From the NCBI GenBank assembly GCA_016191015.1, contig JACPPM010000200.1, forward strand, positions 21,954 through 85,953: 64,000 nucleotides of DNA, in the 5' to 3' direction. Source of the DNA: Acidobacteriota bacterium. GTDB lineage: Bacteria; Acidobacteriota; CAIWXX01. This document shows, one piece after another, positions 30,625 through 54,430 of the stretch. Numbering within the stretch: the first letter of the stretch is position 1; each line of letters starts with the position of its first letter. Below the pieces are notes generated by a model. That model saw only the letters and a program-made list of their open reading frames with translations, was not told the origin of the DNA and did no database searches. The position numbers and the translations under genes were made by a program.

Positions 30625-30701
30625 GCGCCCGTAGCTCAGTTGGATAGAGCGACTGACTACGAATCAGTAGGTCGGGGGTTCGAGCCCCTCCGGGCGCTCC
30701 A
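30625..30701 (+). tRNA. tRNA-Arg (anticodon ACG)
   Basis: Manual cloverleaf fold. Acceptor stem GCGCCCG/CGGGCGC, D-arm GCTC..GAGC, anticodon stem ACTGA/TCAGT with loop CTACGAA, T-loop TTCGAGC, 3' CCA. Confidence 0.9.
30653..30701 (+). repeat. attL: 49-bp direct repeat, the 3' half of tRNA-Arg
   Basis: ctgactacgaatcagtaggtcgggggttcgagcccctccgggcgctcca is repeated at 54382-54430 with 3 mismatches. Confidence 0.85.
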
Positions 30702-30747
30702 TTCCCCTCAATAACTTAGCGGTCTCAGCGGGACGGCGAGATTTCTC

Positions 30748-30768
30748 GGGTACCACCCGGGTACCACC
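30748..30768 (+). promoter_or_regulatory. Tandem GGGTACCACC arm-type repeat, left end of element
   Basis: gggtaccacc-c-gggtaccacc, 47 bp inside attL. The same tandem sits near attR. A 15-bp palindrome tgacgcactgcgtca follows at 30789-30803. Confidence 0.6.
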
Positions 30769-31001
30769 GTCGCGTGATTTCGCCGTCATGACGCACTGCG
30801 TCACAGGTCGAATTGGTGCCATCGAATTCACCAGCCGCGGGTTGCCTCCGTGCTCTGTCGCGTGATCGTAAATAATTGATTCTTCGACATACATAAAATA
30901 AATTTGTGATAAAGAGAGTGGCCTGAAATCCCCTTTATAGGGGATTCTTTGGTGGGCGGGCGCTATTTGACCGGCGTCGGCCGACGTCCTATGTAGGTGG
31001 C

Positions 31002-31307
31002 ATGCGACGCGATACGCACGCTGCTACCCCGCACCGCAGGACTGAGCCGCGCGACGCGGACCGCCTCGTCTCGACGGCCGAAGCCGCCGCATACCTGGGT
31101 ATCAGCGCACAACACATGCGCGCCATGCGGTCCGCCGGCACAGGGCCCGAGTACCACCGGTACTGCGCCGTCGGGACCCGTGGCCGGGCGTATTATCGGT
31201 TGAGTGCCATCGAGTCATGGCTCGCGGCCAGGCGCCACCACTCGACGGCCGACGAGGAGGCCCTGGCGGCGCCCGCCCCACCCTCAAATAACTATCCGGA
31301 GGATTGA
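31002..31307 (+). CDS. Excisionase/AlpA-like HTH DNA-binding protein
   Basis: Signature LVSTAEAAAYLGISAQHMRAMRSAG. First gene inside attL, preceded by an AT-rich region. Confidence 0.6.
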   Translation: MRRDTHAATPHRRTEPRDADRLVSTAEAAAYLGISAQHMRAMRSAGTGPEYHRYCAVGTRGRAYYRLSAIESWLAARRHHSTADEEALAAPAPPSNNYPED

Positions 31308-31308
31308 G

Positions 31309-31407
31309 ATGCCGACACAGAGACACAGCGAGTACGTGCTGATCGGGGCACTCCCCGACGACCCCACCGACTACGACCACGAGACCGTGGATTGCTGGGA
31401 CCGATGA
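31309..31407 (+). CDS. Small ORF (32 aa), translationally coupled to the helicase gene
   Basis: GGAGG ribosome-binding site upstream. Its stop overlaps the next gene's start (ATGA). No homology was assessed. Confidence 0.35.
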   Translation: MPTQRHSEYVLIGALPDDPTDYDHETVDCWDR

Positions 31408-32294
31408 CCACGGACCCCCTCGATGGCAGCCTCGCGAGACGTGTCCCGATCTCGCTGCGGGCCCTCGTCGACGCGTCGCTGCCCCCACTCGATTACGTCT
31501 TGCCCGGTATGCTTGCTGGGACCGTTGGCGCACTGATCTCGCCGGGCGGCGTCGGGAAGAGCTGGTGGGCTCTCCAGGCGTCCGTCTATCTCGCCGGCGG
31601 CCCCGACATACTTGGACTGGACGATCCCAGAGCCCGGCAGCTTCGCCCGGGTCCCGTCGTCTATCTCGCAGCCGAAGACCCCGAGCTGCCCTTGCTGTAC
31701 CGTCTCCAGGCCCTCGCGCGGATGATGGACGATGCCACTCTCGACCGCGTGGATCGCAACCTCCACGTCATCCCGCTCCTTGGGGAATCGCTCGATGTGA
31801 TGACGCCACCTTATCGGCAGGCACTCACCCACTATGCGAAGGGCACGCGGCTCATTGTGATCGACACCCTCCGCCGCGCGCACACCCTCGACGAAAATTC
31901 GAGTGGCGACATGGCCCGTCTCCTGGCTGTCCTAGACCAGGTCGCCGTCACAAGCAACTCGGGTGTGCTCTATCTGCACCACACCACGAAGAGCGCGGCC
32001 CTGTCGGGCCAGGGCGACCTGCAGCAGGCCGCACGCGGATCGTCCGTCCTCGTCGACAACATTAGATGGCAGGCATACGTCTCGGGGATGTCCGAGGCAG
32101 AGGCCGACCGGTACGGGATCACCGACGAGGATCGACGGCTCTACGTCCGAGCCGGCGTAGCCAAGATCAACTACGGTGCTCCTCTACCTGAGCGGTGGTA
32201 CCGTCGTGATGAGAGAGGCATCCTGCGGCCAGCCGATCTCCGTCCGATAGCTACTCGGACGAGGAGGACGCGGCAGGAGGCCCTCTCCGTATGA
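31404..32294 (+). CDS. RecA-like AAA_25 ATPase (RepA-helicase-like replication protein)
   Basis: Walker A SPGGVGKSWWAL and Walker B LIVIDTL. Resembles phage/plasmid RepA-like helicases. Confidence 0.7.
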   Translation: MTTDPLDGSLARRVPISLRALVDASLPPLDYVLPGMLAGTVGALISPGGVGKSWWALQASVYLAGGPDILGLDDPRARQLRPGPVVYLAAEDPELPLLYRLQALARMMDDATLDRVDRNLHVIPLLGESLDVMTPPYRQALTHYAKGTRLIVIDTLRRAHTLDENSSGDMARLLAVLDQVAVTSNSGVLYLHHTTKSAALSGQGDLQQAARGSSVLVDNIRWQAYVSGMSEAEADRYGITDEDRRLYVRAGVAKINYGAPLPERWYRRDERGILRPADLRPIATRTRRTRQEALSV

Positions 32295-32298
32295 CGCG

Positions 32299-33423
32299 GT
32301 GCGGCACGGAGACGGGAGGCCAGACATGAGCGGACGCCCCACAACGCAAACCGATCACGCCCGGCACCACCCCGCGCACTGCATGGCGCCAGGGTTGTTT
32401 CGATCACTGAAGGGCCGGAGTCGCACGGACCGCCCCGCCCTCGACATCAGATACACCTGGGGCGACGCTGAGTACCACTTCCTTGGCGTGGCACTTGGGG
32501 TCGAGGACATGCGTGTCTTACAGGCGCTGACCGCGATCGCGGGTGTGCGCGGTCTACAGCTCCCGCACGAGTCGACTCGGCCGCGAGACCCGCACTGGGA
32601 GCGTCTGCGCCGCACACTCGAGGATACGCCTGCCGACGGCAGTCCGCGGGACCACCGCTCCGCTACCGCTGCGGCTCTCGTGACGAGTCGCTATCGTCTA
32701 GCGGTCGAGGCCGGCTGGGAACCGCACTCCGCCCGCCGCATGCACCTCCTGCTGGAGGCGCTGGAGCGCCTTGGCGCGATCTCGCTCTACGTCACGCACG
32801 GCGCCAAGATCACGGGTCCGTACCGGCTGCTCGCCTTTTTGCTTGATCGAGACACCGACAGACTGCTGATCGCTCTCAACCCGCACATCGCCGCCACAAT
32901 CCTCGGCACCATACCCAGCGTGGCCTATGTCTCGCTCGTCGAGGCACGCGCGCTCACAACCGACCCCAGCCGCCTGCTGCACCAGTGGCTATCCGCGTGG
33001 ATCGGACCCGGCCAAGCGCGCCTCATCTCTATCGACGCAATCTGCTCGCATATCTGGCCCGACAGGGCCACGGACCGGAAGCTACGTGATCGGCGTCTCA
33101 AGGCCCGGGCCAGTCTCGACGAGATCGCCGCACTACCGTACTGGCAGGTCACCCCCCTCCGTCCTGACACCTGGCGCATTTCGCGCCGACGGGGCCTCCC
33201 CTCCGTCGGGGTGTACCGACATCGTCGTTGGGGTGTACCGGCATCGACGTTGGGGTGTACCGGCATCGACGCCCCCCCAGATGCCCATCCGCATCACAGC
33301 CGCTACCAGCGCGGGTCCCAGCCACCAGCGTCACTACCGGACGAAACCGCTCTAGTAGATACTAGAGAGTATCTAGGGCGCGAGGCCCTGGATGACCTCG
33401 CGCCCTCTGGGCCATGGAGATGA
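32299..33423 (+). CDS. Putative replication initiator-like protein holding internal iterons
   Basis: No recognizable catalytic motif. Placed between helicase-like and primase-like genes, and its 3' end holds three 22-bp direct repeats. Confidence 0.4.
   Translation: MRHGDGRPDMSGRPTTQTDHARHHPAHCMAPGLFRSLKGRSRTDRPALDIRYTWGDAEYHFLGVALGVEDMRVLQALTAIAGVRGLQLPHESTRPRDPHWERLRRTLEDTPADGSPRDHRSATAAALVTSRYRLAVEAGWEPHSARRMHLLLEALERLGAISLYVTHGAKITGPYRLLAFLLDRDTDRLLIALNPHIAATILGTIPSVAYVSLVEARALTTDPSRLLHQWLSAWIGPGQARLISIDAICSHIWPDRATDRKLRDRRLKARASLDEIAALPYWQVTPLRPDTWRISRRRGLPSVGVYRHRRWGVPASTLGCTGIDAPPDAHPHHSRYQRGSQPPASLPDETALVDTREYLGREALDDLAPSGPWR
33208..33273 (+). repeat. Three tandem 22-bp iteron-like repeats (ggggtgtaccgRcatcgWcgYY)
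   Basis: Units at 33208-33229, 33230-33251 and 33252-33273. The 22-bp period is not a multiple of 3, so this is a DNA-level repeat. Followed by a C7 run. Confidence 0.7.
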
Positions 33424-34220
33424 GGCGTCAGCTCGCGTGGTACGACTCCGTGGGCGTGGACCGGTTCGATATCGCCGTCTCTCTGAGCGCCGACAACAGC
33501 GACGGCATGATCTGGCACCGCGACATCACCGCCGATCGAGTCATCGCGCTCAGACCCTTCGCCGCGGCGCGCAACGCCGCTGGCGCGAACATCTACGTCC
33601 GGCCGGCTCGTGGTCACGACTGGCCGGTTCTCCTGCTCGATGACATCACTCGCTCTTGGGCGGATCGGATCCAGCGCGCCCGCGCCTGCTGCCTGGTCGA
33701 GACCAGTGCCGCCAATCACCAGGCGTGGATCCACTGCGCTCGTTCCCTGGATGAGCCGGAGCGGTGCGCGTGCCAGCGCGCGATCGCAACCAAGATCGGT
33801 GCGGATATCGGCTCGGTCAGTGGGGAGCACCTCGGCCGCCTCGCAGGCTACCGGAACAACAAACCCGGGCGCGGAGGGCACTGGGTACGCATCCATGCGA
33901 TCGGCGCCGGCCCAGCGTGGGATCCGTCGCGCGTCCTCGCCGCTCAGAGTCCCGGCGATCTCCCGCAGCCGACTCCACCCCCAGGGGGGGCTGTGGTTCA
34001 CGGCGGCGGCGGACCGGATGAGAGCGCCGACGAGTGGGGCTATGTATGCGGCCGGCTGACGTGGCTACGCGACTCGCACGCCTCGGACTCACGCATCACG
34101 GCCGAGCTCGCGGCGATGTCGGCGCAGCTGGAGCGACGCGCGGTCGCACGCCACAAAGCAAAGCCGGCACAGTACGCGGCCCGCACCGTCGCCAACGCAC
34201 GCCGGAGGATCGGGGTGTGA
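33414..34220 (+). CDS. Putative primase/replication protein (RepB'-like)
   Basis: Motifs NIYVRPARGHDWPVLLLDDI and QAWIH. Start overlaps the upstream stop. Assignment is tentative. Confidence 0.4.
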   Translation: MEMRRQLAWYDSVGVDRFDIAVSLSADNSDGMIWHRDITADRVIALRPFAAARNAAGANIYVRPARGHDWPVLLLDDITRSWADRIQRARACCLVETSAANHQAWIHCARSLDEPERCACQRAIATKIGADIGSVSGEHLGRLAGYRNNKPGRGGHWVRIHAIGAGPAWDPSRVLAAQSPGDLPQPTPPPGGAVVHGGGGPDESADEWGYVCGRLTWLRDSHASDSRITAELAAMSAQLERRAVARHKAKPAQYAARTVANARRRIGV

Positions 34221-34287: not shown

Positions 34288-34500
34288 ATGGGATTCGAGT
34301 TCGAGGAAGAGACGAAGGAAACCACCAAAGCAATCAACGTCCGCGTGCCCCTGAGCCTATGCGCTGACTACGAGTCGGAGGCAACAGCTCGTAATACAAC
34401 TGTGAGCAATCTGATCGTCCAGGCGATGCGGTTTGCAATACGAGAGGCACAACGGCACAGACGACAGACTGCGAAGCCTGCGGCACACCGGGAGAGCTAA
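34288..34500 (+). CDS. Ribbon-helix-helix (CopG/Arc-like) DNA-binding protein
   Basis: About 70 aa with a beta-strand and two helices (KAINVRVPLSLCADYESEATARNTTVSNLIVQAMRFAI). GGAGGG ribosome-binding site upstream. Confidence 0.5.
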   Translation: MGFEFEEETKETTKAINVRVPLSLCADYESEATARNTTVSNLIVQAMRFAIREAQRHRRQTAKPAAHRES

Positions 34501-34687
34501 CCGATGACTCCGGAATTCCGGACCGGGAAGGACCCGCTTTGCGGGGGCAAGTTATCGTGTCCACTGCGTGTCCACATCACTGTTGTTTTTGCTTGGCGCT
34601 ACAGCACAAATCGCGTGGACAAATCCGGCCGCAGCATGCGGCGGAATGCGGAAGAGCTAAGTAGCTGATCCCAGGAAAGGGGACAAA

Positions 34688-35221
34688 GTGTCCACAAACA
34701 AGACAGTGCGGCGTCACGAGGTCCGGGCGCGTCTCACGGACGAGGAGTACGGCGCGGTAGCGCATCTCGCGCAGGAGTCCGGGCTCTCGCAGGCGGATGT
34801 CTTGCGGAGGCTCGTCCTCACGCACTCAAAGCGAAAGTGGGAGCGCGCCGCAGCGGGCGAAATAGAGCAGATGACAACCGATGTTGAGGCGCTGAGCAAG
34901 CGCGTCGAAGCGCTCCACAGCAGGCTCGGCGGTGTGGAGCATGGACTCATGGCAGGCATCGAGACCTTGTCAAAGGACATCGTCATCGCGCGGAACGCCG
35001 CCCTCGAAGTCCAGGCGGCGCGCGGAGGAAGCGGCAAGACTGCCCAAGCAATCGAGGCCGGCATCCAGGATCTCTCCGCAGCGGTCCGGGAGCTGATACG
35101 CATTGACTCCCTGACCGCTCTCCGCGTCCAGGCGGTGGTCGATCTACACCCGAGTGAGACGGTCCGCCAGCGATTCGGGCAGTTGGTCGAGCAGGTCCGC
35201 GCCCAGGGAGGCGAAGTCTGA
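34688..35221 (+). CDS. mobC: MobC-family mobilization (relaxosome accessory) protein
   Basis: N-terminal RHH (VRARLTDEEYGAVAHLAQESGLSQADVLRRLV) followed by a helical C-terminus. GTG start. Confidence 0.65.
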   Translation: MSTNKTVRRHEVRARLTDEEYGAVAHLAQESGLSQADVLRRLVLTHSKRKWERAAAGEIEQMTTDVEALSKRVEALHSRLGGVEHGLMAGIETLSKDIVIARNAALEVQAARGGSGKTAQAIEAGIQDLSAAVRELIRIDSLTALRVQAVVDLHPSETVRQRFGQLVEQVRAQGGEV

Positions 35222-36570: not shown

Positions 36571-36592
36571 CGTCACGGAAAAGGAGTCACCA

Positions 36593-37182: not shown

Positions 37183-37788
37183 GTGGCGTCAGAAGAGATG
37201 AATCAATCAGCGGTTCGCTGTCCGAAATGCAACGAAGGAGAGATCGTCGAGCGCGACAAATTCTGGGGGTGCTCCCGATGGGGCCGAGACGCGGATGGTG
37301 CCGTGACGGGGTGCGACTTCAAAGTGTGGAAGGAAGTCGCACATGGAAAGATCACGGAAAAGGACCTGAGGGAACTGGTTGCGGGCGAAATAACGCGCAA
37401 GATCAAGATGCGCAACAAAGCTGGCAAGGATTTCGAGGCGCCGTTGCACCTGAACCAGGAGACGTGGCGGGTCGATTTCCTGTTTGGGGAGGATGTGAGC
37501 ACGACCAACGGCGGCCCGACGCCTGGGGCCGCGATCGGCGCTTGCCCTCAGTGCCATGAGGGGAGCGTGATCGCCTTCGGGGCCGGCTGGCAGTGCAGCC
37601 AATGCAGCTGGAAGCTGTGGCGGCGCAAGTGCGATGCGGAGCTCAGCGAGGATATGGCAAAGACCCTGATCTCCGGGGGCGTGACGCCGGTGCTCGCGAT
37701 GACGAGTCGCGAAGGAAAGAAATTCAAGGCGGCGATGTCCCTTAAAGAAGACGGATCGGTGGAGTTGCGATTCGAGGACGATCACTAG
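37183..37788 (+). CDS. Stand-alone tandem topoisomerase-type C4 zinc-ribbon protein (YrdD-like)
   Basis: Two CxxC..CxxC ribbons (CPKCNEGEIV...WGCSRW and CPQCHEGSVI...WQCSQCSW). AGGAGGA ribosome-binding site before the GTG at 37183. Confidence 0.55.
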   Translation: MASEEMNQSAVRCPKCNEGEIVERDKFWGCSRWGRDADGAVTGCDFKVWKEVAHGKITEKDLRELVAGEITRKIKMRNKAGKDFEAPLHLNQETWRVDFLFGEDVSTTNGGPTPGAAIGACPQCHEGSVIAFGAGWQCSQCSWKLWRRKCDAELSEDMAKTLISGGVTPVLAMTSREGKKFKAAMSLKEDGSVELRFEDDH

Positions 37789-46849: not shown

Positions 46850-47796
46850 GTGTGATGATGATGGATGCGACGCGACAGCGGTTGGTAGCAGCGCTCATCG
46901 CTCTCGCAATCATGATGGCAATTGTCGTTCCGTGCGCGAGCGCAATGCCTCCGGTCTTCATGAACGAAGTCATCGACATGGCTCAAGACAACCAGAAGGT
47001 AGCGAGAATTCTGAGCGAGCTCGGGAGCTGGCACGCCACGGTGTCATCCGCTATTCAAACCTACCAGATGATGCGTCGGATGACCGAGACACTCACATCG
47101 GTTGTGGGGTCACTCGACAATCTCAGTCTGCGGGTAGTCCCACGTATCAAGTTGACGAGCCTCCTTGGGCTCGCATTCAACAACACAGAAATGCAGAAGT
47201 TTTTCGAGCTGATGGAAGGTGGGGCTAAGCTCAGCGATCTAGCGGAACTCTCCGGTTTCATGCAGAACCACTTTCTCACGCAGTACGACACTATTTTCCC
47301 TGACAGCTACAATCCGGTCAGCACAGACCCCGAGACCCCTCCCTTGCGTGCGAAGGATTGGGAGTTTGTGTGGGGGTGGGGGACGCTGAACCCGACCGAC
47401 GCGGAGCGCGGCATGCTAACTGCCGCCGAAGGTCGGATGGCTTGGCGCAAGATGCTCGCCGTCCGTAACCAGGCCAACCTCGCATCCATGCGCGGCATGG
47501 CGGAAGACAACACAACCGCGCTCTCTGCCTTGGCGGACAAGGTCAGGGAGGCCGAGAAGAGCGGAAAAGCTTACGACGCGATCATAGCGCAGGTCGGTGC
47601 CATGCTCGGCGACGTGCAATTGCAGACCGAACTCATCACCGGCCAGCTCGAGATGCTGGTCCAGGCAGGGGGCGAGGAAGTTGACCACATCGGCGCGGTT
47701 CGCAACGCCACACCAGAGGCTGTTGAGGCGATTTGCAAAGACGCCGGTGACGGATTGAATGGCTCGGCCTCGCTCTACTTCAGGCTGGGGTGGTGA
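46846..47796 (+). CDS. Hypothetical exported protein (possible VirB5/TrbJ-like)
   Basis: GTG start overlaps the upstream stop, 8 nt after AAGGAG. N-terminal hydrophobic segment, helical/coiled-coil rest. Confidence 0.4.
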   Translation: MSVMMMDATRQRLVAALIALAIMMAIVVPCASAMPPVFMNEVIDMAQDNQKVARILSELGSWHATVSSAIQTYQMMRRMTETLTSVVGSLDNLSLRVVPRIKLTSLLGLAFNNTEMQKFFELMEGGAKLSDLAELSGFMQNHFLTQYDTIFPDSYNPVSTDPETPPLRAKDWEFVWGWGTLNPTDAERGMLTAAEGRMAWRKMLAVRNQANLASMRGMAEDNTTALSALADKVREAEKSGKAYDAIIAQVGAMLGDVQLQTELITGQLEMLVQAGGEEVDHIGAVRNATPEAVEAICKDAGDGLNGSASLYFRLGW

Positions 47797-48093
47797 TCGC
47801 CGCCATGCCCCGGTGCGAAGACGGAGTGCCGGCAGTCACGACGAGTCCTTCGCCGTCGCTCGCCTGGGCCCGCTCTCACGCCCCGCGTCTCGGGCACGCT
47901 TCGCTCTCCGGCTCCGTTGCAGACGGGTCCCCTCCCGCCTTCGGCGGGAACCCTCCCCATCTTCACTCCGCCTCCGGCCTGAGAAGCGGGGACGCGGGCC
48001 TTTAGGGCGAGGCGACGGCGAAGGACTCATCGTGAGACAGGCGGCGGCAGACAATACACAGTAATGCGTGTATTGCCGCCAAAGCCGCACGAG

Positions 48094-48120
48094 GCGCCGG
48101 CTCAGGATCTATCGTGAGAC
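48094..48120 (+). repeat. Element-internal repeat family B, partial copy (…caggatctatcgtgagac)
   Basis: Matches the 3' part of the copies at 48967-49034 and 50277-50335. Confidence 0.55.
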
Positions 48121-48135
48121 AACCGTAAGAACTCC

Positions 48136-48330
48136 ATGAAGACGATTATCTGTCCGAATCCGAACTGCGGATACCGAGGTACGCCACGAAGAGAAGCGCG
48201 GGGGAGCGCCTTACTGGGGTGCTTTCTGATGTTCCTGTTTCTGCTTCCAGGCATCTTCTATTTCATGCTCAAGAGCGGGTGGCGCTACTACTGCCCGCGA
48301 TGCGGCCTGCAGATGGGCGTGCAGAACTGA
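48136..48330 (+). CDS. Small zinc-ribbon membrane protein
   Basis: CPNPNC...CPRC ribbon flanking a central TM helix (LLGCFLMFLFLLPGIFYFML). Confidence 0.45.
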   Translation: MKTIICPNPNCGYRGTPRREARGSALLGCFLMFLFLLPGIFYFMLKSGWRYYCPRCGLQMGVQN

Positions 48331-48468
48331 GGTGATGCCGCCAAGCCTGGCACCCCGAGTTGGCGAAATGCGTCAGCTGCGTCGGGCGGAGTATAATACA
48401 CATGTGACCGCAGCCCTCGGGAATTGCAAACGATTTGGCATCTTAAACCCCTATCGAGGTTGGCGCAC

Positions 48469-48948
48469 ATGAAGATTCGCCTAAATTCCACTCCATCGTC
48501 CAAGGAGCCGAGTCCGATCACTCCGCCAGTCATTCTTCATCTCAGCCCAGAAGTTATCGCATGCGCTGAGAAACAGCGGGAGGACTGCCTGAGAGAGCAG
48601 CGACGGAAAGAAGACGCTCTGAGAGCGGACGAAGAAGAAGAGGCACAACGAGAGGAACAGCGCCAATCGGGCGCGCGCCTCCATGAGTCTGTAGCTTTGC
48701 GGCAGCTGGCAAATGCTCGAATCGAAGAAGAAAGGGCGGCCCGAACGAAGGCGGACGAGGCGCACACAAGGGAAGAAGAAATCCGAAGGCAACGACTCGG
48801 TGAAAGGGAATCTGTCTCCGTCGGAGCCGGAGGTAAAACCGGAGGCTCCAAGGCCAAGGAGAATGCGGAGGATGAGGATGAGAAAGGCGGCTCAACCCCT
48901 TCGACCTTCATCAGCTTCTTCCGTCGTTTCTTCGCGCCCCGGGGATGA
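48469..48948 (+). CDS. Hypothetical highly charged (E/R-rich) protein
   Basis: Coiled-coil-like EEEEAQREEQR composition. Confidence 0.3.
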   Translation: MKIRLNSTPSSKEPSPITPPVILHLSPEVIACAEKQREDCLREQRRKEDALRADEEEEAQREEQRQSGARLHESVALRQLANARIEEERAARTKADEAHTREEEIRRQRLGERESVSVGAGGKTGGSKAKENAEDEDEKGGSTPSTFISFFRRFFAPRG

Positions 48949-48966
48949 CCGTTGGAACTGTAGGTC

Positions 48967-49034
48967 CCCCTATCCCCCGCCCGGGGTAACGCGGAACGGA
49001 GGCTCGGGCGCCGGCGCAGGATCTATGGTGAGAC
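48967..49034 (+). repeat. Element-internal repeat family B, full copy 1
   Basis: cccctatcccccgcccggggtaacgcggaacggaggctcgggcgccggcgcaggatctatggtgagac. Confidence 0.6.
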
Positions 49035-49063
49035 GGGGGAACGGAACAGCCGGCGAATGAAGT

Positions 49064-49315
49064 TTATAGTTGGCGCTCCTTTAGGTACTGCGCAAGTGCC
49101 TCGATCACAATATCGACCATTTCGCGTCGGGTGCTCGCTGCGGCCACCTTCAGGCGATAGTGGAGCTCTTCCGGCAAATTGAACGTAGCCTTTTTCATCG
49201 CCGCTTTTCCGAATGGCGACTGCGCCTCTATACGCTGTATAGCTGTAGCCTGTATGCCTGTATGTCCAGCCTGCCTTTGTCCGGTGACTCCTGCCAATCC
49301 TACGCGCTTAGACAT
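49064..49315 (-). CDS. RHH/ParG-like partition DNA-binding protein
   Basis: C-terminal RHH (KKATFNLPEELHYRLKVAAASTRREMVDIVIEALAQYL). Lies immediately downstream of parA on the same strand. The start could instead be the internal ATG at 49198. Confidence 0.5.
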   Translation of the reverse strand: MSKRVGLAGVTGQRQAGHTGIQATAIQRIEAQSPFGKAAMKKATFNLPEELHYRLKVAAASTRREMVDIVIEALAQYLKERQL

Positions 49316-49953
49316 TTTCTCAACTCCTTTACGAGTAGTCGCAATTCCTTGGTCGCCGCTGAGTGTGGCGCAAGACCGGAAACGGTCCGCCCCGCGACAG
49401 ATGCCTCTGCTAGGGCCACCCGTTGTGCTATTTCGGCACGGCAGACAGGCAGTCCGATGCTTCTGGCAGCTTCGCGAGCCTCATCGCCGATTGCCGTGCC
49501 GACGATCCGCCGGCTGATCACGATGTAAGCACGCAACCCCGCATTGCTGCTCCGGGCGCGTGCGATCATCTCCGCCATCCCTTCGCCGCTCCACAGGTCG
49601 AACGCAGACGGCTGGATCGGAACAAGAACGAGATCCGCGACAGCCAGGGCCGACCGCGTAATGCTCTCGGCGCCCGCTGGTCCCCCAGGGGGGCAGTCAA
49701 TCAGGATCATGTCGTACTTGTGGCGGAGTTTGGGCACCTCAGCATGGAGGATTGGCGCCGGCATAGCGACGACATGGAAAGGGATTGAACCCTCCGATCG
49801 AACGCCACGCCAGCGAACAACGGATCCCTGCGGATCGGCGTCAACGAGAAGTGCCTCAAGCCCTTCTTCCCCCAGGATCCCAGCCAATCCGAGCGCGATC
49901 GTGGTCTTGCCACATCCGCCCTTCTGGTTGGCAATCACAATAACGTGACCCAT
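49300..49953 (-). CDS. parA: ParA/ParF-family partition ATPase
   Basis: Deviant Walker A NQKGGCGKTT. ParA motifs VDADPQGS and ILIDCPP. 217 aa, small plasmid-type. Confidence 0.85.
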   Translation of the reverse strand: MGHVIVIANQKGGCGKTTIALGLAGILGEEGLEALLVDADPQGSVVRWRGVRSEGSIPFHVVAMPAPILHAEVPKLRHKYDMILIDCPPGGPAGAESITRSALAVADLVLVPIQPSAFDLWSGEGMAEMIARARSSNAGLRAYIVISRRIVGTAIGDEAREAARSIGLPVCRAEIAQRVALAEASVAGRTVSGLAPHSAATKELRLLVKELRKCLSA

Positions 49954-49990
49954 ATGTCTGTAGATACAGACTACAGCGATACAGCGATCT
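49954..49990. promoter_or_regulatory. CTGTAG/CTACAG repeat cluster directly upstream of parA (candidate operator or centromere)
   Basis: tgtctgtagatacagactacagcgatacagcgatc. Related CTGTAT repeats lie at 49225-49270. Confidence 0.5.
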
Positions 49991-50276
49991 TGTCAAGTCG
50001 CGCCGTGCGTCGCCGGCGCGAGAGAGCGACAGCGGAGTTCGGACCGCCGCTCGCCCAGAGTCCCTGGGCTCCCTCCTCAACCCCGCTGGGCGGGGACCCG
50101 ATGCCCCCTAGCCCCGTCGGGGAACCCGGACCCAGCGAGGGCGATGGACGACGAGGTGTCAGGACCTTCGCGCAGATCCACCAGGACCGTGGCTTCGAGG
50201 AGCCGCGGAATTCCGGACCTGCGCGCGGCCGGGCGGCCGTGCTACTCCAGGGGCAAGCCCCTGGACCCATGTCCCA

Positions 50277-50335
50277 CCTATCCCCCGAAGGGGGTAACGC
50301 GGACGGAGGCTCCGGCTCAGGATCTATCGTGAGAC
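50277..50335 (+). repeat. Element-internal repeat family B, full copy 2
   Basis: cctatcccccgaagggggtaacgcggacggaggctccggctcaggatctatcgtgagac. Confidence 0.6.
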
Positions 50336-50600
50336 ACGATCGATCGATCGACATAGCCCCGGCCGCGGGATCGGAAAGGAGTTGACTTTTGACCCCACAA
50401 GTGCCAACCTTCGCCTATGGGTACCCGTAGGGCAGACAGGACCGCGTTAGATCTGCGCGAAGCACTCGGCGCGTCGCAAGAGACATCGGATTTCTCCACC
50501 GCCTCGGGCCGGAAACGAATCAAGGCGAGGTCGTTGTGGAGTTCGATGGGCGGTTTTACCGCATTACGAAATTCGATTCAGCGTGAATTAGGAGGATCTC

Positions 50601-50978
50601 ATGGCTAGAATCCACGACACCAGCAAGAGCCTGCCGCGTGTGCGCGATACGAGCACGGCCCTCGCGTGTATACCAGCCAAGAAAGTGACGACGACCCTGG
50701 GCGCTAATCGTACGCCTCACTTGAGGCAGGGTGCAAAGGGGCCCATCAGCTTGCTCGCGTTAGCGGAGCTCCTGAGCCAACAGTTGGCGTCCACAGGCGG
50801 CCGACCAGGTCTCGCAAACGCAGAGCGGCGCCAAAAGATCCCTACGTTGAAGGGGGACTGGCAAAGGCTCAAGCATATCGCGTCCCAGCTGCAGCAACGA
50901 GGCGTTCCCTGCACACCGGGGCAGGTGGCGGGCATATTGCTCCACGAAGACATTAATTGGCTCGAGGCCGCGATATAG
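50601..50978 (+). CDS. Hypothetical protein
   Basis: Strong AGGAGGA ribosome-binding site. No recognizable domain. Confidence 0.4.
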   Translation: MARIHDTSKSLPRVRDTSTALACIPAKKVTTTLGANRTPHLRQGAKGPISLLALAELLSQQLASTGGRPGLANAERRQKIPTLKGDWQRLKHIASQLQQRGVPCTPGQVAGILLHEDINWLEAAI

Positions 50979-51325
50979 AGAGAGAAGCCGGAAGGACGCT
51001 CTCCGGGAAAAGCAACCTGAAGAAGAACGCCAGAGGAACTACGATCGCTAGACCGTTGACGGCGAAGCAGCGGCGGGAGGTTGCGGCGCTCGCTCAGCGA
51101 CCCGACGGCGAGATCGACTACTCCGACATTCCACCGCTCGAAGACAAGTTCTGGAGGGACGCCGTCCGGAATCCTTTTTATCGTCCGGTCAAGCGACAGC
51201 TCACCGTGCGGTTGGACGTGGATGTGCTCGTGTGGCTGCGCAGCCAGGGCAGGGGATACCAGACGAGAATCAACGCCCTGCTGCGTGAGGAGATGCTCAA
51301 GAGGATGGGCAAGAAAACAGCGTAG
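50957..51325 (+). CDS. BrnA/DUF4415-family antitoxin-like protein
   Basis: Family motif DYSDIPPLEDKFWRDAV...LDVDVL.WLRSQGRGYQTRINALLR. Start codon uncertain (possibly TTG). Confidence 0.5.
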   Translation: MARGRDIEREAGRTLSGKSNLKKNARGTTIARPLTAKQRREVAALAQRPDGEIDYSDIPPLEDKFWRDAVRNPFYRPVKRQLTVRLDVDVLVWLRSQGRGYQTRINALLREEMLKRMGKKTA

Positions 51326-51442: not shown

Positions 51443-51480
51443 ATCCCTTCTCCTCGTGCCCGTCCTGCCATCCGGGCCAC

Positions 51481-51545
51481 GGTGAACCACTGCCCCCCCC
51501 CTGGGGGTGGAGTCGGCGGCAGAGAGCTTCCGGGATTCCTGCCGT
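51481..51545. repeat. Element-internal repeat family C, copy 1, with a C9 homopolymer
   Basis: gtgaaccactgccccccccctgggggtggag...gagagcttccgggattcctg. Related to 52225-52290, and the core recurs at 33970 and 36620. Confidence 0.6.
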
Positions 51546-51619
51546 GGGACGGTGGCGCTAAGAAGGAGCCCTCGCGCACAGCCCTGCAATTGTAGCTACA
51601 GAAGGAGTTATAATGGTTC

Positions 51620-51903
51620 GTGAGGTTCGCGTGGGATGAAACTAAGAATACGGAGAACATTCGGAACCACGGCTTCGACTTTGCCGATGTGTGGGAGCTC
51701 TTCGAAAATGCACTCCTCGTGGACCTGGATACTCGCGAGATTATGGCGAGGACCGGTGGATAGGGATCGGACTGCTCAAGAGTGTGGCGGTCGTGGCCGT
51801 CGTCGTGTTTGCCGAGAGAGGACCGGAAACCGTGCGAGTCATCTCGCTCACGAAGGCAACGAAGCATGAAAAAGAAAGATACGAAAACGCCGTCAAGGAC
51901 TGA
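51620..51903 (+). pseudogene. brnT: brnT (DUF497 RNase toxin) disrupted by a -1 frameshift
   Basis: The N-terminal part (VRFAWDETKNTENIRNHGFDF...) stops at 51748. The C-terminal part (DYGEDRWIGIGLLKSVAVVAVVVFAERGPETVRVISLTKAT) continues in the -1 frame. Confidence 0.6.
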
Positions 51904-52141
51904 CTGGAAGCGAGTCAAGGCCATGTCCGATCCTGAGATTGATTGCTCCGATGTCCCTGAGCTCGGCGAGGATTTCTTTGCGCGAGCGGTTCTCTGGCCC
52001 GGGCCCAAGAAGCAAATCACTCTACGGCTTGACCCTGACGTCTTGGATTTCTTCAAGCACCAGGGCCGTGGCTATCAACGGAACATCAACACCGTGCTGC
52101 GGCGATACGTCGAGCTCCAAAGGCAGCGACACGCCAGCTAA
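51866..52141 (+). CDS. brnA: BrnA antitoxin
   Basis: MKKKDTKTPSRTDWKRVKAMSDPEID...ITLRLDPDVLDFFKHQGRGYQRNINTVLRRYV. Overlaps the 3' end of brnT. Confidence 0.7.
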   Translation: MKKKDTKTPSRTDWKRVKAMSDPEIDCSDVPELGEDFFARAVLWPGPKKQITLRLDPDVLDFFKHQGRGYQRNINTVLRRYVELQRQRHAS

Positions 52142-52224
52142 AGCCGATTCCTCACAAACGATGGCACGCCCCAGCGTGCCATCGCCTCACCTCGTGACTT
52201 TCTCGGTGGGGCCGGAATGGATGT

Positions 52225-52290
52225 GAACCACAGCCCCCCCCTGAGGGTGGAGGGGGCTGCGGAGAGCTTCCGGGATTCCTGGAGTGGGGC
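52225..52290. repeat. Element-internal repeat family C, copy 2, with a C8 homopolymer
   Basis: gtgaaccacagccccccccctgagggtggagggggctgcggagagcttccgggattcctgg. Confidence 0.6.
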
Positions 52291-52340
52291 GGCAAAGACC
52301 AATCGTCCGGCTCGCCGCGTGAGACAGCTTGAAGACAAGG

Positions 52341-52691
52341 CTAGCGCAGTGGCAGGTACTGGACGCGCTGTGCCAGTTCGCCCGGTTCGGCGAGCACGGC
52401 CAGCAGGTGGAGATCGGCGACGAACTGCCCGATTGTCATGCGCAATTGGTGGGCATAGATCACGCCGGTGAACGGGCGTCCTGCATTCTGCCACGCGTGA
52501 GCATGCCTAAGGAAGTCCTCGTCTTGGGTCACCACCACCCTCTCGAGCTCGCAAGCTCTGGCAAGCACGGCAGCGTCGCTCTCGCCAACGTGTCCGTCCT
52601 GCTGGACACTCAAAACATCTATGCCAGCCATGCTCAGAGCCGCGGTGACCGCGGCCGGCACGTGCTCGTCCATGTAGAGCCGCAGGCCCAC
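52341..52691 (-). CDS. DUF5615-family (PIN-like) putative toxin
   Basis: About 116 aa with a conserved acidic/His core. Paired with an upstream DUF433 gene through an ATGA overlap. Confidence 0.55.
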   Translation of the reverse strand: MGLRLYMDEHVPAAVTAALSMAGIDVLSVQQDGHVGESDAAVLARACELERVVVTQDEDFLRHAHAWQNAGRPFTGVIYAHQLRMTIGQFVADLHLLAVLAEPGELAQRVQYLPLR

Positions 52692-53050
52692 TACAAGCGG
52701 CCCTCAGCCTTCATGCGAGCAAGGAATGGAGATTCGCCTTCTCGCGCGCGAAGATCCTCCACGCGTCGGACCTGGGCACCGATTTCTACATCCATCTCAG
52801 GCTTGTGATCGTAGTAGTACGAGAGCGCGGCATGAATCTGCGCCAGGCTGATCTGCCGATAGTGCTGAATGAAGATCTCCTCGGGGCTCCATCCGTGGGC
52901 GAGGTGATCGAGCGCGATCTCCACAACTTTGCAGGAGGTTCCCTCGATCGTGGCTCGTCCCTCCGCGTCGAGCCGGATATGTGGAACTGACGTGACAGCT
53001 TTGGACAACTTGCTTTCCTCCTCCCTCGAATATACTACGTGCTCTCTCAT
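52691..53050 (-). CDS. DUF433-family putative antitoxin
   Basis: DUF433-like region IRLDAEGRATIEGTSCKVVEIALDHLAHGWSPEEIFIQHYRQISLAQIHAALSYY. Confidence 0.55.
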   Translation of the reverse strand: MREHVVYSREEESKLSKAVTSVPHIRLDAEGRATIEGTSCKVVEIALDHLAHGWSPEEIFIQHYRQISLAQIHAALSYYYDHKPEMDVEIGAQVRRVEDLRAREGESPFLARMKAEGRL

Positions 53051-54204
53051 CCAGCTTTGCTGATCGGCACAATTTTCTCGGTCGTTCGTCTCTCAACGGC
53101 CTCGCGCCGTTCCTTGATATCCATCGGAGAGTAATGCAGCTCCGCAATCCGGACGTCGGTCCGCAGCACGCGTGCCGCCATAAGCAACCCAGCTTGCTGC
53201 GTGATGTCACGGCCGAAGGTTCTCCGGAGGTCGTGGATGTTAACATTCGGGATGTGTGCTGTCGTCCGGATCCAGTTCCAGTGGTTCTTCAAGTCTTGTC
53301 TCCCGCGATCCGGATCTTGACCGGGAAACACGAAAAGAGAACGCCTGGGTACTTGCCTGAGCTTCCCGATCGTATACGCCGGGAGTGGGACTTCCTGGGA
53401 TTTGCCGGCCTTTGTTTGCGGAAGTGTCCAGATTGCTCGCTCGAAGTTGATGTCATCCCACTTCGCCCTCAGTACTTCGCTCTTGCGAGCTCCCGTCGTC
53501 ACAAGCATGAGGAACGCGGTGCGTACGAAGGGTTCGGGAATTTGCTCGATCGCGATGAGGACGCGCTCGAGCTCCTCTTCAGTCAACGCCCGCTTGCGAG
53601 GGGGCGGCTCGGGGTACCGACGGACCTTTCTCGCCCGATTCTCCATGATCAAGCTGCGCCTCCATGCCTCTTGCAGGCATCCGCTCACACTGGCCAGAAA
53701 CCTGTTGGCCGCGGCGTTGTGACCTTCAGCAGCCAGCCTCGCTGCCGGCTTCTCGATGTCTTCCACGCTCACTTGGTCGAGTCTCTTCTCTCCGAATTCT
53801 GCCGATGCCTTGCGGAGATAATTACGGTCCTCTGATGGCCTTTTCTTCCGCAAAGCTATTCGCTCGAGGTACTCGGTGATCCATTCGCGCATCAGGGGTA
53901 TCGCCTGACGGCGTTGCTTATCAGCGAGAGGGTCGCCGCCCTTGATCACGCACGCGAGCTTTTCGATCGCCATCTGACGTGCGGCTTCAACCGTGAGGGG
54001 ACCGTAAAGACCGAGAGTGATTCTGCGCCTCGTCTTGCGACCGCCGTACCGCAGCACGAATGCCTTACGACCACGCGGAGCCTCCTTGCTCCCGGGATAG
54101 GCAACGACACCGAGACCGGGGATCTCGTTGTCCCAGACGTAAGCACGATCGCCCGCGTTTGTCTCGAGAGAGTCAATCAGGCGCTTAGTGAGTCGACCTT
54201 TCAT
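53047..54204 (-). CDS. int: Tyrosine-type site-specific integrase (P4-like)
   Basis: N-terminal arm-binding domain (LTKRLIDSL...AYVWDNEIPGLGVVAYPGS), a core-binding domain, and a C-terminal catalytic domain with a conserved H..R...Y region. Confidence 0.9.
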   Translation of the reverse strand: MKGRLTKRLIDSLETNAGDRAYVWDNEIPGLGVVAYPGSKEAPRGRKAFVLRYGGRKTRRRITLGLYGPLTVEAARQMAIEKLACVIKGGDPLADKQRRQAIPLMREWITEYLERIALRKKRPSEDRNYLRKASAEFGEKRLDQVSVEDIEKPAARLAAEGHNAAANRFLASVSGCLQEAWRRSLIMENRARKVRRYPEPPPRKRALTEEELERVLIAIEQIPEPFVRTAFLMLVTTGARKSEVLRAKWDDINFERAIWTLPQTKAGKSQEVPLPAYTIGKLRQVPRRSLFVFPGQDPDRGRQDLKNHWNWIRTTAHIPNVNIHDLRRTFGRDITQQAGLLMAARVLRTDVRIAELHYSPMDIKERREAVERRTTEKIVPISKAG

Positions 54205-54245
54205 CCTACTCCTCCTGTGTCAGTGCGCTGGTCAGTAGGTTGCTC

Positions 54246-54266
54246 GGGTACCACCAGGGTACCACG
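54246..54266 (+). promoter_or_regulatory. Tandem GGGTACCACC arm-type repeat, right end of element
   Basis: gggtaccacc-a-gggtaccacg, in the same orientation as the left-end copy at 30748-30768. Confidence 0.6.
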
Positions 54267-54381
54267 CACTCATAGTAACCCGCCGACACCAGAATACGCT
54301 TCACACGACTAAGTGTAACATAACTATGAATGTCGTCAACACCCAAATACGCCCGGCAACGTATAAAACGTTTACAGCCTA

Positions 54382-54430
54382 CTGACTACGAATCAGTAGG
54401 TCGGGAGTTCGAGCCTCTCCGGGCGCGCCA
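54382..54430 (+). repeat. attR: partial tRNA-Arg 3' half
   Basis: ctgactacgaatcagtaggtcgggagttcgagcctctccgggcgcgcca, with 3 mismatches to the intact tRNA. Confidence 0.85.

Follow-up and report, generated by a model that had tools for sequence, protein, structure and literature searches.

Two copies of a tRNA 3′ sequence, lying 23.7 kb apart on the same strand, bound the central segment of the 64-kb window (the whole stretch of 64,000 nucleotides analysed). The left copy belongs to an intact tRNA-Arg(ACG) gene, called by both ARAGORN and the Rfam tRNA model as initially annotated (Table 1). Pairwise alignment confirmed that the repeat contains three mismatches, but its length proved to be 51 nt rather than the 49 bp first proposed; it begins with the opening base of the anticodon stem and reaches one base beyond the CCA. 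The chance expectation per window was 0.01 for a 21-mer of this repeat (≤3 mismatches) and 0.00 for a 25-mer from its anticodon-arm part. In the Islander collection, the commonest (“A”) class of attP sequences likewise begins with the opening base of the anticodon stem (PMC4383910). Two of the mismatches constitute a compensatory T-stem pair, G-C at 30677/30687 and A-T at 54406/54416, while the third is the discriminator base (U73 in the putatively regenerated tRNA, G73 in the displaced copy); each copy thus resembles the 3′ half of a functional tRNA gene.

Table 1 Features of the segment and its borders (window coordinates)
Feature	Position	Strand	Evidence
Intact tRNA-Arg(ACG), putative regenerated integration target	30625..30701	+	ARAGORN; Rfam RF00005, 67.6 bits
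attL core	30652..30702	+	repeat family D6, 51 nt, 94% identical; pairwise alignment
Tandem GGGTACCACC decamers, candidate P′ arm-type integrase site	30748..30768	+	putative function
AlpA/Xis-like HTH protein, 101 aa	31002..31307	+	Pfam HTH_17, E=3.8e-9
RepA-type helicase (AAA_25)	31404..32294	+	Pfam, E=2.9e-30
RepC iteron-binding initiator	32299..33423	+	Pfam RepC, E=1.4e-52
oriV iterons, 3.1 copies of 22 bp	33204..33271	.	TRF score 115
Remaining candidate oriV	33272..33415	.	sequence; DNA fold z=-3.4
RepB-type primase	33414..34220	+	Pfam RepB_primase, E=1.2e-14
Small CopG-like RHH protein	34288..34500	+	Pfam RHH_5, E=0.001, below curated cut-off (weak); gene call in L004
Intergenic region, candidate oriT	34501..34687	.	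GTGTCCAC repeats and inverted repeats
NikA-like RHH relaxosome accessory protein	34688..35221	+	Pfam NikA-like, E=7.3e-5, below cut-off
Divergent MOBQ-like HUH relaxase, 449 aa	35221..36570	+	fold and motif
ORF of 174 aa	36593..37117	+	GNAT match below threshold only
Zinc-ribbon protein, topoisomerase C-terminal repeats	37183..37788	+	Pfam Toprim_Crpt, E=1.1e-25
Cargo: reprolysin-like metalloprotease, BACON and TIG domains, 907 aa	37923..40646	+	Pfam
Cargo: signal peptide, fn3-like repeats, 951 aa	40653..43508	+	Pfam fn3, E=4e-16
ORF of 153 aa	43599..44060	+	no family match
Type IV coupling protein (VirD4/TraG family)	44062..45876	+	Pfam T4SS-DNA_transf, TraG-D_C, TrwB_AAD_bind
TrbL/VirB6-like membrane protein	45887..46849	+	Pfam TrbL, E=1.3e-12
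ORF of 316 aa, N-terminal hydrophobic segment, predicted all-helical	46846..47796	+	no family match
31-nt motif GAGGCNCCGGCNCAGGATCTATCGTGAGACA, copies at 48009, 48091, 49005, 50306	48009..50336	+	repeat family D4
Partition module: 83-aa RHH protein (49064-49315), ParA ATPase (49300-49953)	49064..49953	-	Pfam
ORF of 125 aa and BrnA-type antitoxin (50957-51325)	50601..51325	+	Pfam BrnA_antitoxin, E=3.7e-15
Second BrnT/BrnA cassette	51620..52141	+	sequence reading; BrnA gene call in L094; repeat D5
DUF433 antitoxin and DUF5615 PIN-like toxin pair	52341..53050	-	Pfam
P4-type tyrosine integrase, N-terminal arm-binding domain	53047..54204	-	Pfam Phage_integrase 5.4e-14, Arm-DNA-bind_3 2.8e-10
Tandem GGGTACCAC(C/G) decamers, candidate P arm-type site	54246..54266	+	sequence
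attR core, displaced 3′ fragment of tRNA	54381..54431	+	repeat family D6; pairwise alignment
Decayed remnant of related element	54432..~55760	.	blastn

Domain searches placed a tyrosine integrase just inside the right repeat and an Xis-like HTH protein just inside the left, in agreement with the initial annotation. The integrase is 27-29% identical to those of guaA-inserted islands. The same-orientation tandem decamers reported near both ends were also recovered: GGGTACCAC occurs exactly four times in the window (0.18 expected), always on the + strand, as two tandem pairs (30748-30767 and 54246-54265) confined to the two ends of the element, 46 nt (left) and 115 nt (right) from the att cores. 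Judged by sequence, these pairs are candidate arm-type sites flanking the reconstructed attP.

As the source is a metagenome-assembled genome, a free plasmid with a tRNA-like attP could have been misassembled into the chromosome through the tRNA sequence that both share, and in the source sample the Logan contigs indeed stop or start within the two att cores (L004 begins at 30668, L094 ends at 54412 and L086 at 54383). However, such breaks are what tRNA k-mers shared within a metagenome produce, and the breakpoints do not resemble those of an attB/attP mixture. Moreover, the attR junction was assembled independently from a different sample (SRR12113401), where contig L087 runs unbroken from a NUDIX gene through a 211-aa ORF and attR into the integrase at 99.97% identity, while in a third sample (SRR12113422) contig L098 joins the 5′ half of the tRNA to the left end of the element. 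We therefore regard an assembly chimera as exceedingly unlikely.

Between the repeats, Pfam and NCBIfam scans revealed a plasmid-like interior with replication, mobilisation, partition, toxin-antitoxin and cargo genes. By sequence comparison, the replication module is specifically of the IncQ type, sharing with IncQ plasmids the RepA/RepC/RepB trio and iterons located after repC. RepA is 36-53% identical to RepA proteins adjoining IncQ-type RepC in 80 loci, RepC is 38-40% identical to IncQ RepC, and for RepB the identity to the RSF1010-type domain (L009-L012) is 33%. RepC family homology stops near aa 296 (~nt 33186), directly before the 22-bp iterons, and the tail of the ORF reads through oriV (alignment A1). 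Arrays of the same period (3-3.6 copies) and position follow repC in the guaA islands L045 and L005. In the remainder of the candidate oriV, which may contain ssi-like sites, a G+C-rich stretch is accompanied by an A+T-rich palindrome (33349-33377) and a hairpin of 9-11 bp (33375-33408).

The mobilisation genes include a NikA-like gene that overlaps the start of the gene for a 449-aa protein. Searches of this protein against Pfam, NCBIfam and PDB sequences returned nothing, hhalign gave a probability of 15%, and the whole-model Foldseek search was not significant. Nevertheless, its predicted layout, with a catalytic domain at aa 1-~150 and long helices thereafter, together with Y27, H110, H122 and H124, which are invariant in 36 homologues, identifies it, by fold and motif, as a divergent MOBQ-like relaxase. 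In L093, a P4-type integrase gene lies at a tmRNA gene and adjoins the same pair of relaxase and coupling protein. The intergenic region upstream of the relaxosome genes is, from its position, a candidate oriT; its DNA fold was not significant (z=-1.8). In the coupling protein a Walker A motif is visible, and the position of the ORF preceding it is kept in the sibling element L095, where the ORF encodes 144 aa. The 316-aa ORF downstream may have a TrbJ/VirB5-like role; its AlphaFold2 single-sequence model was unusable (pLDDT 40.7).

An own coupling protein and a TrbL/VirB6 homologue, surrounded by several ORFs that have no family assignment, would also befit a self-transmissible ICE whose mating-pore genes (the 153-, 316- and 101-aa ORFs and the small ORFs at 48-49 kb) have diverged beyond recognition. 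Yet neither VirB4 nor other pore components were matched in Pfam and NCBIfam scans of the large ORFs: every ORF of at least 200 aa was scanned and is either assigned or unrelated, none has the size or type of VirB4, and the ~3 kb of coding space left unassigned would not suffice for a mating pore. An ICE thus appears highly unlikely, and given the lack of VirB4 and a complete secretion machinery the apt term is “mobilizable”, not “conjugative”. We know of no helper conjugative element, which counts against the reading as a mobilizable element.

Insertion in a tRNA gene, a P4-type integrase and an AlpA-like HTH protein are features shared by satellites such as P4, so that a prophage or phage satellite must also be weighed. 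The Pfam and NCBIfam scans detected no capsid, terminase, portal, tail or satellite hallmark genes in the element, and an IMG/VR scan with the integrase gave a single remote match (25% identity), whereas the relaxase, coupling protein, TrbL and IncQ replicon point to conjugative mobilisation. A phage origin is scarcely credible, and the earlier reading of an integrated plasmid-like element rather than a prophage is upheld by the orientation of the tRNA and its fragment, the integrase, the HTH protein, the arm sites and the interior. We assign a probability of about 0.8 to the reading of these 23.7 kb as an integrative mobilizable element (IME) that an uncultured Acidobacteria bacterium carries in its tRNA-Arg(ACG) gene; in effect, it is probably an IncQ-like mobilizable plasmid combined with an integration module.

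The cargo consists of two large secreted proteins, the BACON/TIG metalloprotease and the fn3-repeat protein. The latter shares 75% nucleotide identity with an 862-aa homologue in L095, which lacks the protease and zinc-ribbon genes and carries a different ORF in place of the 174-aa one. With the same backbone and partly other gene content in this sibling, the element can be regarded as a distinct genetic entity. ParA matched Pfam AAA_31, CbiA and MipZ, and the 83-aa RHH protein gave a weak RH3_dom match. The GAGGCNCCGGCNCAGGATCTATCGTGAGACA motif occurs only inside the element (3 copies counted vs 0.00 expected). The plasmid-like gene set proposed initially held for replication, mobilization, partition and cargo, but its toxin-antitoxin part had to be softened: on reading the sequence, the first BrnA lacks a recognisable toxin partner, and in the second cassette, flanked by 59-nt direct repeats (D5), brnT is frameshifted while brnA (51866-52141) is intact.

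Base composition offers a weak argument for foreign origin as far as GC is concerned. An AT-rich interior was correctly noted, the lowest 1-kb value of the window being 55.8% GC at 46-47 kb, but the flanks, put at ~65% GC, have 62.2-62.3%, the same as the element (62.3%). Tetranucleotide usage, proposed as a check, does set the element apart, with correlations to the flanks of 0.79-0.89 inside vs 0.94-0.97 outside.

This matching GC content, together with the frameshifted brnT and the 3/51 differences between the att copies, could indicate a former IME that integrated in an ancestor and has since been inherited vertically as a genomic island, no longer excising or transferring. Consistent with fixation, the backbone of L095, which comes from a related population in another sample, is 88% identical to that of the element, similar to the 88-90% between the chromosomes of the same populations, so that long vertical residence fits as well as recent transfer. 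Neither attP circular junctions nor empty attB sites were found in the data searched; the PcnB-tRNA flank is present in only two relatives, L002 and L003, which both end inside the tRNA, and the next (L001) has no tRNA-Arg after PcnB. On the other hand, the core genes (int, xis-like, repA, repC, repB, relaxase, coupling protein, trbL and parA) are all intact ORFs, the decamers are perfectly conserved at both ends, and two of the three att mismatches are compensatory, as expected of two functional tRNA alleles and not of decay. Furthermore, the different cargo of the sibling and a right junction that differs among three close strains argue for ongoing turnover. We consider a fixed island unlikely.

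For an active IME, the arrangement suggests the following model. The integrase would have recombined an attP carrying tRNA-Arg from the anticodon stem-loop to the 3′ end with attB in the tRNA gene, with crossover in the anticodon arm or at the base of the variable region, thereby regenerating the tRNA at attL and moving the native 3′ half to attR. Its N-terminal arm domain would bind the tandem GGGTACCACC decamers on both arms, and excision would require the integrase and the AlpA/Xis-like protein. On the excised circle, RepC could recognise the three 22-bp iterons that directly follow repC, while RepA unwinds the DNA and RepB primes, as in IncQ plasmids; ParA and the small RHH protein, plus the toxin-antitoxin genes, may stabilise it. 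For transfer, the NikA-like protein and the relaxase would nick oriT, probably in the 34.5-34.7-kb intergenic region, and the coupling protein would bring the relaxosome to a mating pore that a co-resident conjugative element provides and to which the IME may contribute its TrbL/VirB6 homologue; the IME itself encodes no VirB4 ATPase, pilus or channel genes.

The closest known relatives are the guaA-inserted GIsul2, IncP-island and PIME elements of Pseudomonadota, in which int and alpA occur together with repA/repC and trbJ/trbL; excision, replication and mobilisation by IncP helpers have been demonstrated for PIMEs (PMC5704250; bioRxiv 10.64898/2026.01.12.698999). The element is not a member of this group, from which it differs in site (tRNA-Arg instead of guaA), host (Acidobacteria) and trbJ. 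Mobile elements of this kind are known, and the present case is clear and well bounded, but hardly any have been described from this phylum or with such a relaxase type.

The ~1.3-kb wreck of a related element directly outside attR indicates repeated use of the tRNA-Arg site. Its contents are a brnA1-like piece (54581-54864, 82%), the 211-aa ORF (54891-55526, - strand), a piece like the 3′ end of the integrase gene (55545-55605, 76%) and a brnA2-like 3′ end (55601-55754, 83%). In close relatives of the chromosome, homology to the window stops at 55760-55772, and L089 has VapBC there instead.

The insert, which occupies a tRNA-Arg gene of an acidobacterium, is an integrative mobilizable element (IME) whose IncQ-type replicon is complete. 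The initial annotation had reported that the 3' end of tRNA-Arg(ACG) recurs across the element over 49 bp; repeat search and pairwise alignment confirmed the recurrence and extended it to 51 nt. The two copies lie on one strand and agree at 48 of 51 positions; shuffled sequence would be expected to contain sub-patterns of the repeat 0.00-0.01 times. The repeat runs from the 5' base of the anticodon stem (30652) through CCA plus one base and includes the anticodon arm ACTGA/CTACGAA/TCAGT (anticodon at 30659-30661). An identity block starting at the anticodon stem is the sublocation of the anticodon-centred "A" attP class, the most frequent class in Islander (PMC4383910). Two of the three mismatches, 30677/54406 (G/A) and 30687/54416 (C/T), are pairing partners in the T stem, where one copy has G-C and its counterpart A-T, and the third, 30698/54427 (T/G), is the discriminator base. 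Because of this compensatory pair and the discriminator mismatch, both copies resemble 3' halves of functional tRNA-Arg genes, as expected if the element imports a copy of its own from which the target is rebuilt. Crossover must have taken place to the left of 30677, within 25 identical bases spanning the anticodon arm. At the discriminator position the regenerated tRNA-Arg has T (U73) and the displaced fragment G.

The integrase has Arm-DNA-bind_3 and catalytic domains above cut-offs and a sub-threshold central domain (Phage_int_M), which is the P4-type architecture. In the 64 kb, GGGTACCAC is present four times (0.18 expected), as two tandem pairs in a single orientation, of which one lies 46 nt inward from attL and the other 115 nt inward from attR; the GGGTACCACC decamers are candidate arm-type integrase sites. 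At positions 1-30 of Logan contig L097 (SRR12113401), the tip ACTGACTTCGAATCAGT, with anticodon TCG instead of ACG, is fused to the left end of the element; this could reflect a genuine variant, or else a unitig tip made chimeric by a tRNA-Arg(UCG) gene.

The junctions were also recovered from other samples. Contig L087, from another run, spans the NUDIX gene, a 211-aa ORF, attR and the integrase at 99.97% identity, and in L098, which comes from a third run, bases of the tRNA 5' half continue into the left end of the element; the integrated form is therefore no artefact of one assembly. The element was met only in this form, and a search among contigs for the empty site (attB) and the circular junction (attP) found neither. 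On the left flank, a PcnB scan of genome contigs returned no relative, and neither exact look-ups of PcnB nor a DNA pattern, taken from the promoter region between PcnB and the tRNA and run on metagenomes, gave a match. Two loci with PcnB relatives (L002, L003) terminate inside the tRNA at window position 30670, and a third (L001, PcnB 63% identical) is without tRNA-Arg at the corresponding place. On the right flank, two chromosomal relatives (L088, L089; 88-90% identity) cease to match the window at 55760-55772, shortly after the NUDIX stop codon, and their contigs run only 26-820 nt further; in L089, VapBC takes the place of the window DNA beyond NUDIX. Logan contig breaks were considered as evidence of excision and rejected: the 30-mer shared by contigs L086 and L094 corresponds to 54383-54412, whereas an attB/attR branch would be placed at 54381. 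Sharing of tRNA k-mers with other organisms best accounts for the breaks within the att cores.

A sibling element (L095, SRR22388342) is 88% identical from repB to the relaxase gene, is without the genes for the zinc-ribbon protein and the protease, and its genes for the fn3 protein (75%) and the coupling protein (71%) have diverged. The element backbone and the chromosome diverge similarly between populations, so that the element may have been inherited vertically for a long time. In L089, which comes from the same run and whose chromosome is 89% identical, VapB/VapC adjoin NUDIX and the contig end (3070-3082), GGTGGTACCGTGG, includes the reverse complement of the arm-type motif GGTACCACC, a hint that a related element abuts there too.

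Beyond attR, the segment up to the end of homology holds three pieces like the element's own parts, namely brnA1 (82%), the 3' end of brnA2 (83%) and ~60 nt of the integrase 3' end (76%), together with the 211-aa ORF, which has a nucleotidyltransferase-like G-x-D-x-D motif. Close chromosomal relatives have other DNA at this place. The segment is the decayed wreck of a related element, which brings the strain-specific DNA to ~25.1 kb and means that the tRNA-Arg site was used at least twice. Repeat sub-pattern searches of the window found no third tRNA fragment; as the outer island has no tDNA fragment of its own, only the integrase-3'-end piece, the arrangement is not a formal tandem array. The tRNA/tmRNA islands of Islander are alike in having a regenerated tDNA and a displaced 3' fragment as ends, an internal tyrosine integrase, the correct orientation, and repeated use of the same tDNA (PMC4383910).

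Gene content was taken from Pfam and NCBIfam scans and from independent gene calls in Logan contigs, and is listed from left to right below.

Features of the element and its right-hand border in window coordinates, with motif copies in the last rows
Feature	Position (strand)	Remark
tRNA-Arg(ACG)	30625-30701	sole tRNA in the window (ARAGORN); Rfam 67.6 bits, nothing else in Rfam scan
attL core	30652-30702	
HTH_17 protein (AlpA/Xis-like)	31002-31307 (+)	
RepA (AAA_25)		
RepC (PF06504)	32299-33423	first stop at 33423
Three 22-bp iterons	33204-33271	3.1 x 22 bp
RepB primase		
Small RHH		
Repeat-rich intergenic region		190 bp
NikA-like RHH		
ORF449	35221-36570 (+)	449 aa; putative relaxase
174-aa ORF		
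Toprim_Crpt zinc-ribbon protein		
Reprolysin/BACON/TIG protein		907 aa
fn3-repeat protein		951 aa
153-aa ORF		
VirD4/TraG coupling protein		
TrbL/VirB6		
316-aa ORF		
Region with 31-nt motif x4	48009-48039, 48091-48121, 49005-49035, 50306-50336 (+)	motif GAGGCNCCGGCNCAGGATCTATCGTGAGACA
ParA + 83-aa RHH		
125-aa ORF + BrnA		
Second BrnT	51620-51900 (+)	frameshifted
Second BrnA	51866-52141 (+)	intact
DUF433/DUF5615 (PIN-like) pair		
Tyrosine integrase	53047-54204 (-)	Arm-DNA-bind_3
attR core	54381-54431	
Segment beyond attR	54432-55760	decayed remnant of a related element
45-60-nt motif	33940-34010 (+), 36579-36649 (+), 51466-51552 (-), 52213-52292 (-)	four copies
30-nt companion of GAGGCNCCGGCNCAGGATCTATCGTGAGACA	48966, 50274	

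The initial reading of an integrated plasmid-like element, not a prophage, proved correct. The gene set is plasmid-like, Pfam and NCBIfam scans of the element found no phage structural, virion, packaging or satellite hallmark genes, and there is no close IMG/VR relative; a prophage or phage satellite was therefore rejected. An integrative conjugative element was set aside as well, because the same scans yielded neither a VirB4-family ATPase nor a full mating-pore set: VirB4, VirB9, VirB10 and VirB11 were not found in any ORF of at least 200 aa, and the coupling protein (T4CP) and TrbL are the only T4SS genes found. What is present are the attributes of an IME: a site-specific recombinase (integrase domains) with flanking att direct repeats (the 51-nt tRNA/3'-fragment pair), its own MOBQ-like relaxase (an IME is expected to have a relaxase and/or an oriT), and no complete mating-pore (T4SS) gene set. 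Excision and helper-dependent transfer, which the definition of an IME also includes, are predicted. Composition separates the element from its surroundings only in part: tetranucleotide usage distinguishes it moderately, but GC content, which had been said to set parts of it apart, does not (62.3% inside vs 62.2-62.3% in the flanks). A PADLOC scan of the cargo and of the ORFs without assigned function gave no defence match. The 316-aa ORF, tested as TrbJ/VirB5, had no family match, and its single-sequence AF2 model (pLDDT 40.7) was unusable. The second BrnT gene is split by a 1-nt frameshift; a 209-aa ORF at 51427-52056 (-) was dismissed as spurious, the real genes being brnT/brnA on the opposite strand.

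RepC matches PF06504 (E = 1.4e-52; 179 bits vs a cut-off of 22.8) and over residues 6-296 shares 38-40% identity with annotated IncQ RepC, and the proteins alongside it, the RepA helicase (AAA_25, E = 2.9e-30) and the RepB primase (RepB_primase, E = 1.2e-14), both match IncQ counterparts by tblastn, RepB with 33% identity to the RSF1010-type MobA/RepB primase domain. These three are the defining genes of an IncQ-type replicon. Next to the iterons lies a G+C-rich stretch, then a palindrome rich in A+T, then a hairpin that folds strongly (DNA fold z = -3.4); this is the IncQ oriV layout, as in RSF1010. By its iterons of ~20-22 bp and its G+C- and A+T-rich segments the region fits an IncQ-type oriV, with the hairpin as a candidate ssi site. 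Iteron period and position are matched at two chromosomal repC loci, L045 (22 bp x 3.6, beginning 22 nt past repC) and L005 (22 bp x 3.0). The RepC reading frame continues for ~78 extra codons through the iterons and oriV's A+T-rich part. A matching tail is absent from all seven other homologues aligned (alignment A1), six of which end near the iteron start; the remaining homologue, P0128 (379 aa), ends in a C-terminal tail of unrelated sequence. Since RepC homologues end where the iterons begin, we regard the 78-codon tail as read-through of oriV.

IncQ plasmids (RSF1010/R1162; pTF-FC2/pTC-F14) resemble the element in the trio of RepA helicase, RepB primase and RepC initiator, in 22-bp-period iterons followed by G+C-rich/A+T-rich segments and hairpins, in a MOBQ-fold relaxase, and in being mobilizable, not conjugative. 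In contrast to them, the element is integrated via a tyrosine integrase, is ~3x larger, carries T4CP and TrbL, encodes RepB as a separate gene instead of a fusion to MobA, and has proteins at most 40-50% identical to theirs.

ORF449 had no match in Pfam, NCBIfam, or PDB phmmer and profile searches, and none by tblastn against 72,556 plasmids; it belongs by sequence neither to Pfam MobA_MobL/Relaxase nor to a MobA profile. Alignment to MobA with hhalign brought the His motif into register at a probability of only 15%, Foldseek with the full-length model gave nothing significant, and just one of 36 homologues matched Pfam Relaxase (E = 0.0017). The family is small, with ~50 representatives among 1.84 billion clustered proteins (exhaustive HMMER search). 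Within the 36-homologue alignment, Y27, G56, H110, H122, H124 and G140 are invariant and R33, G55, E72, G137 and Q143 nearly so. Y27 and H110/H122/H124 parallel Y25 and H112/H120/H122 of MobA (sequence from L011), in the numbering of R1162/RSF1010 MobA (PDB 2ns6). ORF449 has the MOBQ combination of HUH-relaxase fold, N-terminal catalytic Tyr and three-His metal site, and conserved residues and modelling together predict a divergent MOBQ-like relaxase. The N-terminal Tyr and three-His cluster are shared with MobA and with NES of pLW1043 (4ht4), whereas ORF449 differs from these MOBQ relaxases in having no significant Pfam/NCBIfam/PDB relaxase match and in a long C-terminal helical region unrelated to MobA.

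Gene context agrees with the relaxase reading: in L093 an ORF449 homologue lies between a tmRNA-adjacent P4-type integrase and a coupling protein 31% identical to the element's, and L091 has the same relaxase and coupling-protein pair. The clade is probably missed by current MOB-typing profiles, so that elements carrying it would be scored non-mobilizable. The integrative element in L093 (JFJP01000307.1, 450-6657) consists of the tmRNA gene, P4-type integrase, ORF449-family relaxase, coupling protein and PIN, and among its cargo beyond PIN are genes for a type I R-M specificity subunit and for a reverse transcriptase.

IMEs at the guaA 3' end of Pseudomonadota have been described as GIsul2, IncP islands and PIMEs (Harmer 2017, as cited in PMC5704250; bioRxiv 10.64898/2026.01.12.698999). 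PIMEs, for which helper-induced excision, replication and mobilisation have been shown, are reported only from Pseudomonadota (bioRxiv 10.64898/2026.01.12.698999). A RepC profile scan of one genome per species retrieved 80 loci; 39 have int upstream of repA-repC, 22-41% (mostly 27-29%) identical to the element's, and lie mostly on large chromosomal contigs without a tRNA. Such loci belong to the GIsul2/IncP-island/PIME family, as does L045, with the order guaB-guaA-int-repA-repC-iterons-TrbJ-TrbL. The element resembles this family in its P4-type integrase with Arm-DNA-bind_3 (27-29% identical), AlpA-type HTH, TrbL/VirB6 homologue, lack of a complete T4SS, large variable cargo, RepA (36-53%) and RepC (31-40%), and three 22-bp iterons directly after repC. 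From the PIME core-gene set (int, alpA, replicase, trbJ, trbL) it has int, the HTH_17 protein, repA/repC and TrbL; TrbJ/VirB5 was not detected, and tblastn found no similarity for the HTH protein or TrbL.

The element lies in tRNA-Arg(ACG), whereas the reference L045 is at guaA, and its host is an acidobacterium, not one of the Pseudomonadota; NCBI lists PcnB, RepC and NUDIX of the window under an Acidobacteria bacterium MAG. Its int is at the far end and inverted, which places attP between int and alpA, and it adds a RepB primase, its own coupling protein, ParA and a MOBQ-like relaxase, where PIMEs have an IncP-type TraI or none. IncQ-type repA-repC also occurs in MAGs labelled Bacteroidota, Planctomycetaceae and Nitrospira (L024, L051 and L054), preceded by an integrase in L024 and L051. 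The near co-linearity of L024 with a Lysobacteraceae locus (L023) makes mis-binning a possibility. Actinomycete integrative and conjugative elements (AICEs) such as pSAM2 integrate into tRNA genes, excise, replicate autonomously as circles and then transfer, using an FtsK-like TraB, double-stranded DNA transfer and replication proteins other than those found here. Their life-style logic is alike, but transfer system and replication proteins differ, and no homology is implied.

By analogy, the element would function like a PIME or an IncQ plasmid, yet it belongs to neither. What makes it notable is mainly its phylum, its complete replicon and its rare relaxase clade. We put at roughly 0.45 the probability that it represents a distinct, phylum-crossing lineage of replicative IMEs, in which IncQ-type RepA/RepB/RepC and iterons are combined with a P4-type integration module and a MOBQ-fold relaxase clade unseen by Pfam/NCBIfam/PDB sequence models (~50 representative clusters), travelling with its own coupling protein at tRNA/tmRNA genes. 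If this is true, IncQ-like plasmids and guaA-type PIMEs would be two branches of an older, wider plasmid/IME continuum beyond Pseudomonadota. The association of an integrase with IncQ-type RepA/RepC now extends beyond that phylum, although a recent account had confined the PIME family to it. Acidobacteriota are dominant in soil, with few cultured members and genetic tools, and their mobile elements are little described in the literature searched; the candidate replicon repA-repC-oriV-repB (~3 kb), the tRNA-Arg integration system and the mobilisation module are potential vector parts for them.

Repeated motifs were also observed inside the element. The 45-60-nt motif has the core TCCACCCCCA-GGGGGGG-CTGTGGTTCA; within RepB and the 174-aa ORF its plus-strand copies are read as the peptide PPxGGAVVH, two copies form 59-nt direct repeats around the second brnT/brnA cassette, and homology to the sibling L095 ends at 36639, the end of one copy. 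These copies may be recombination junctions for module exchange. The 31-nt motif, found only inside the element and without an Rfam match, is preceded at two of its copies by the 30-nt companion, and could be a regulatory or centromere-like site.
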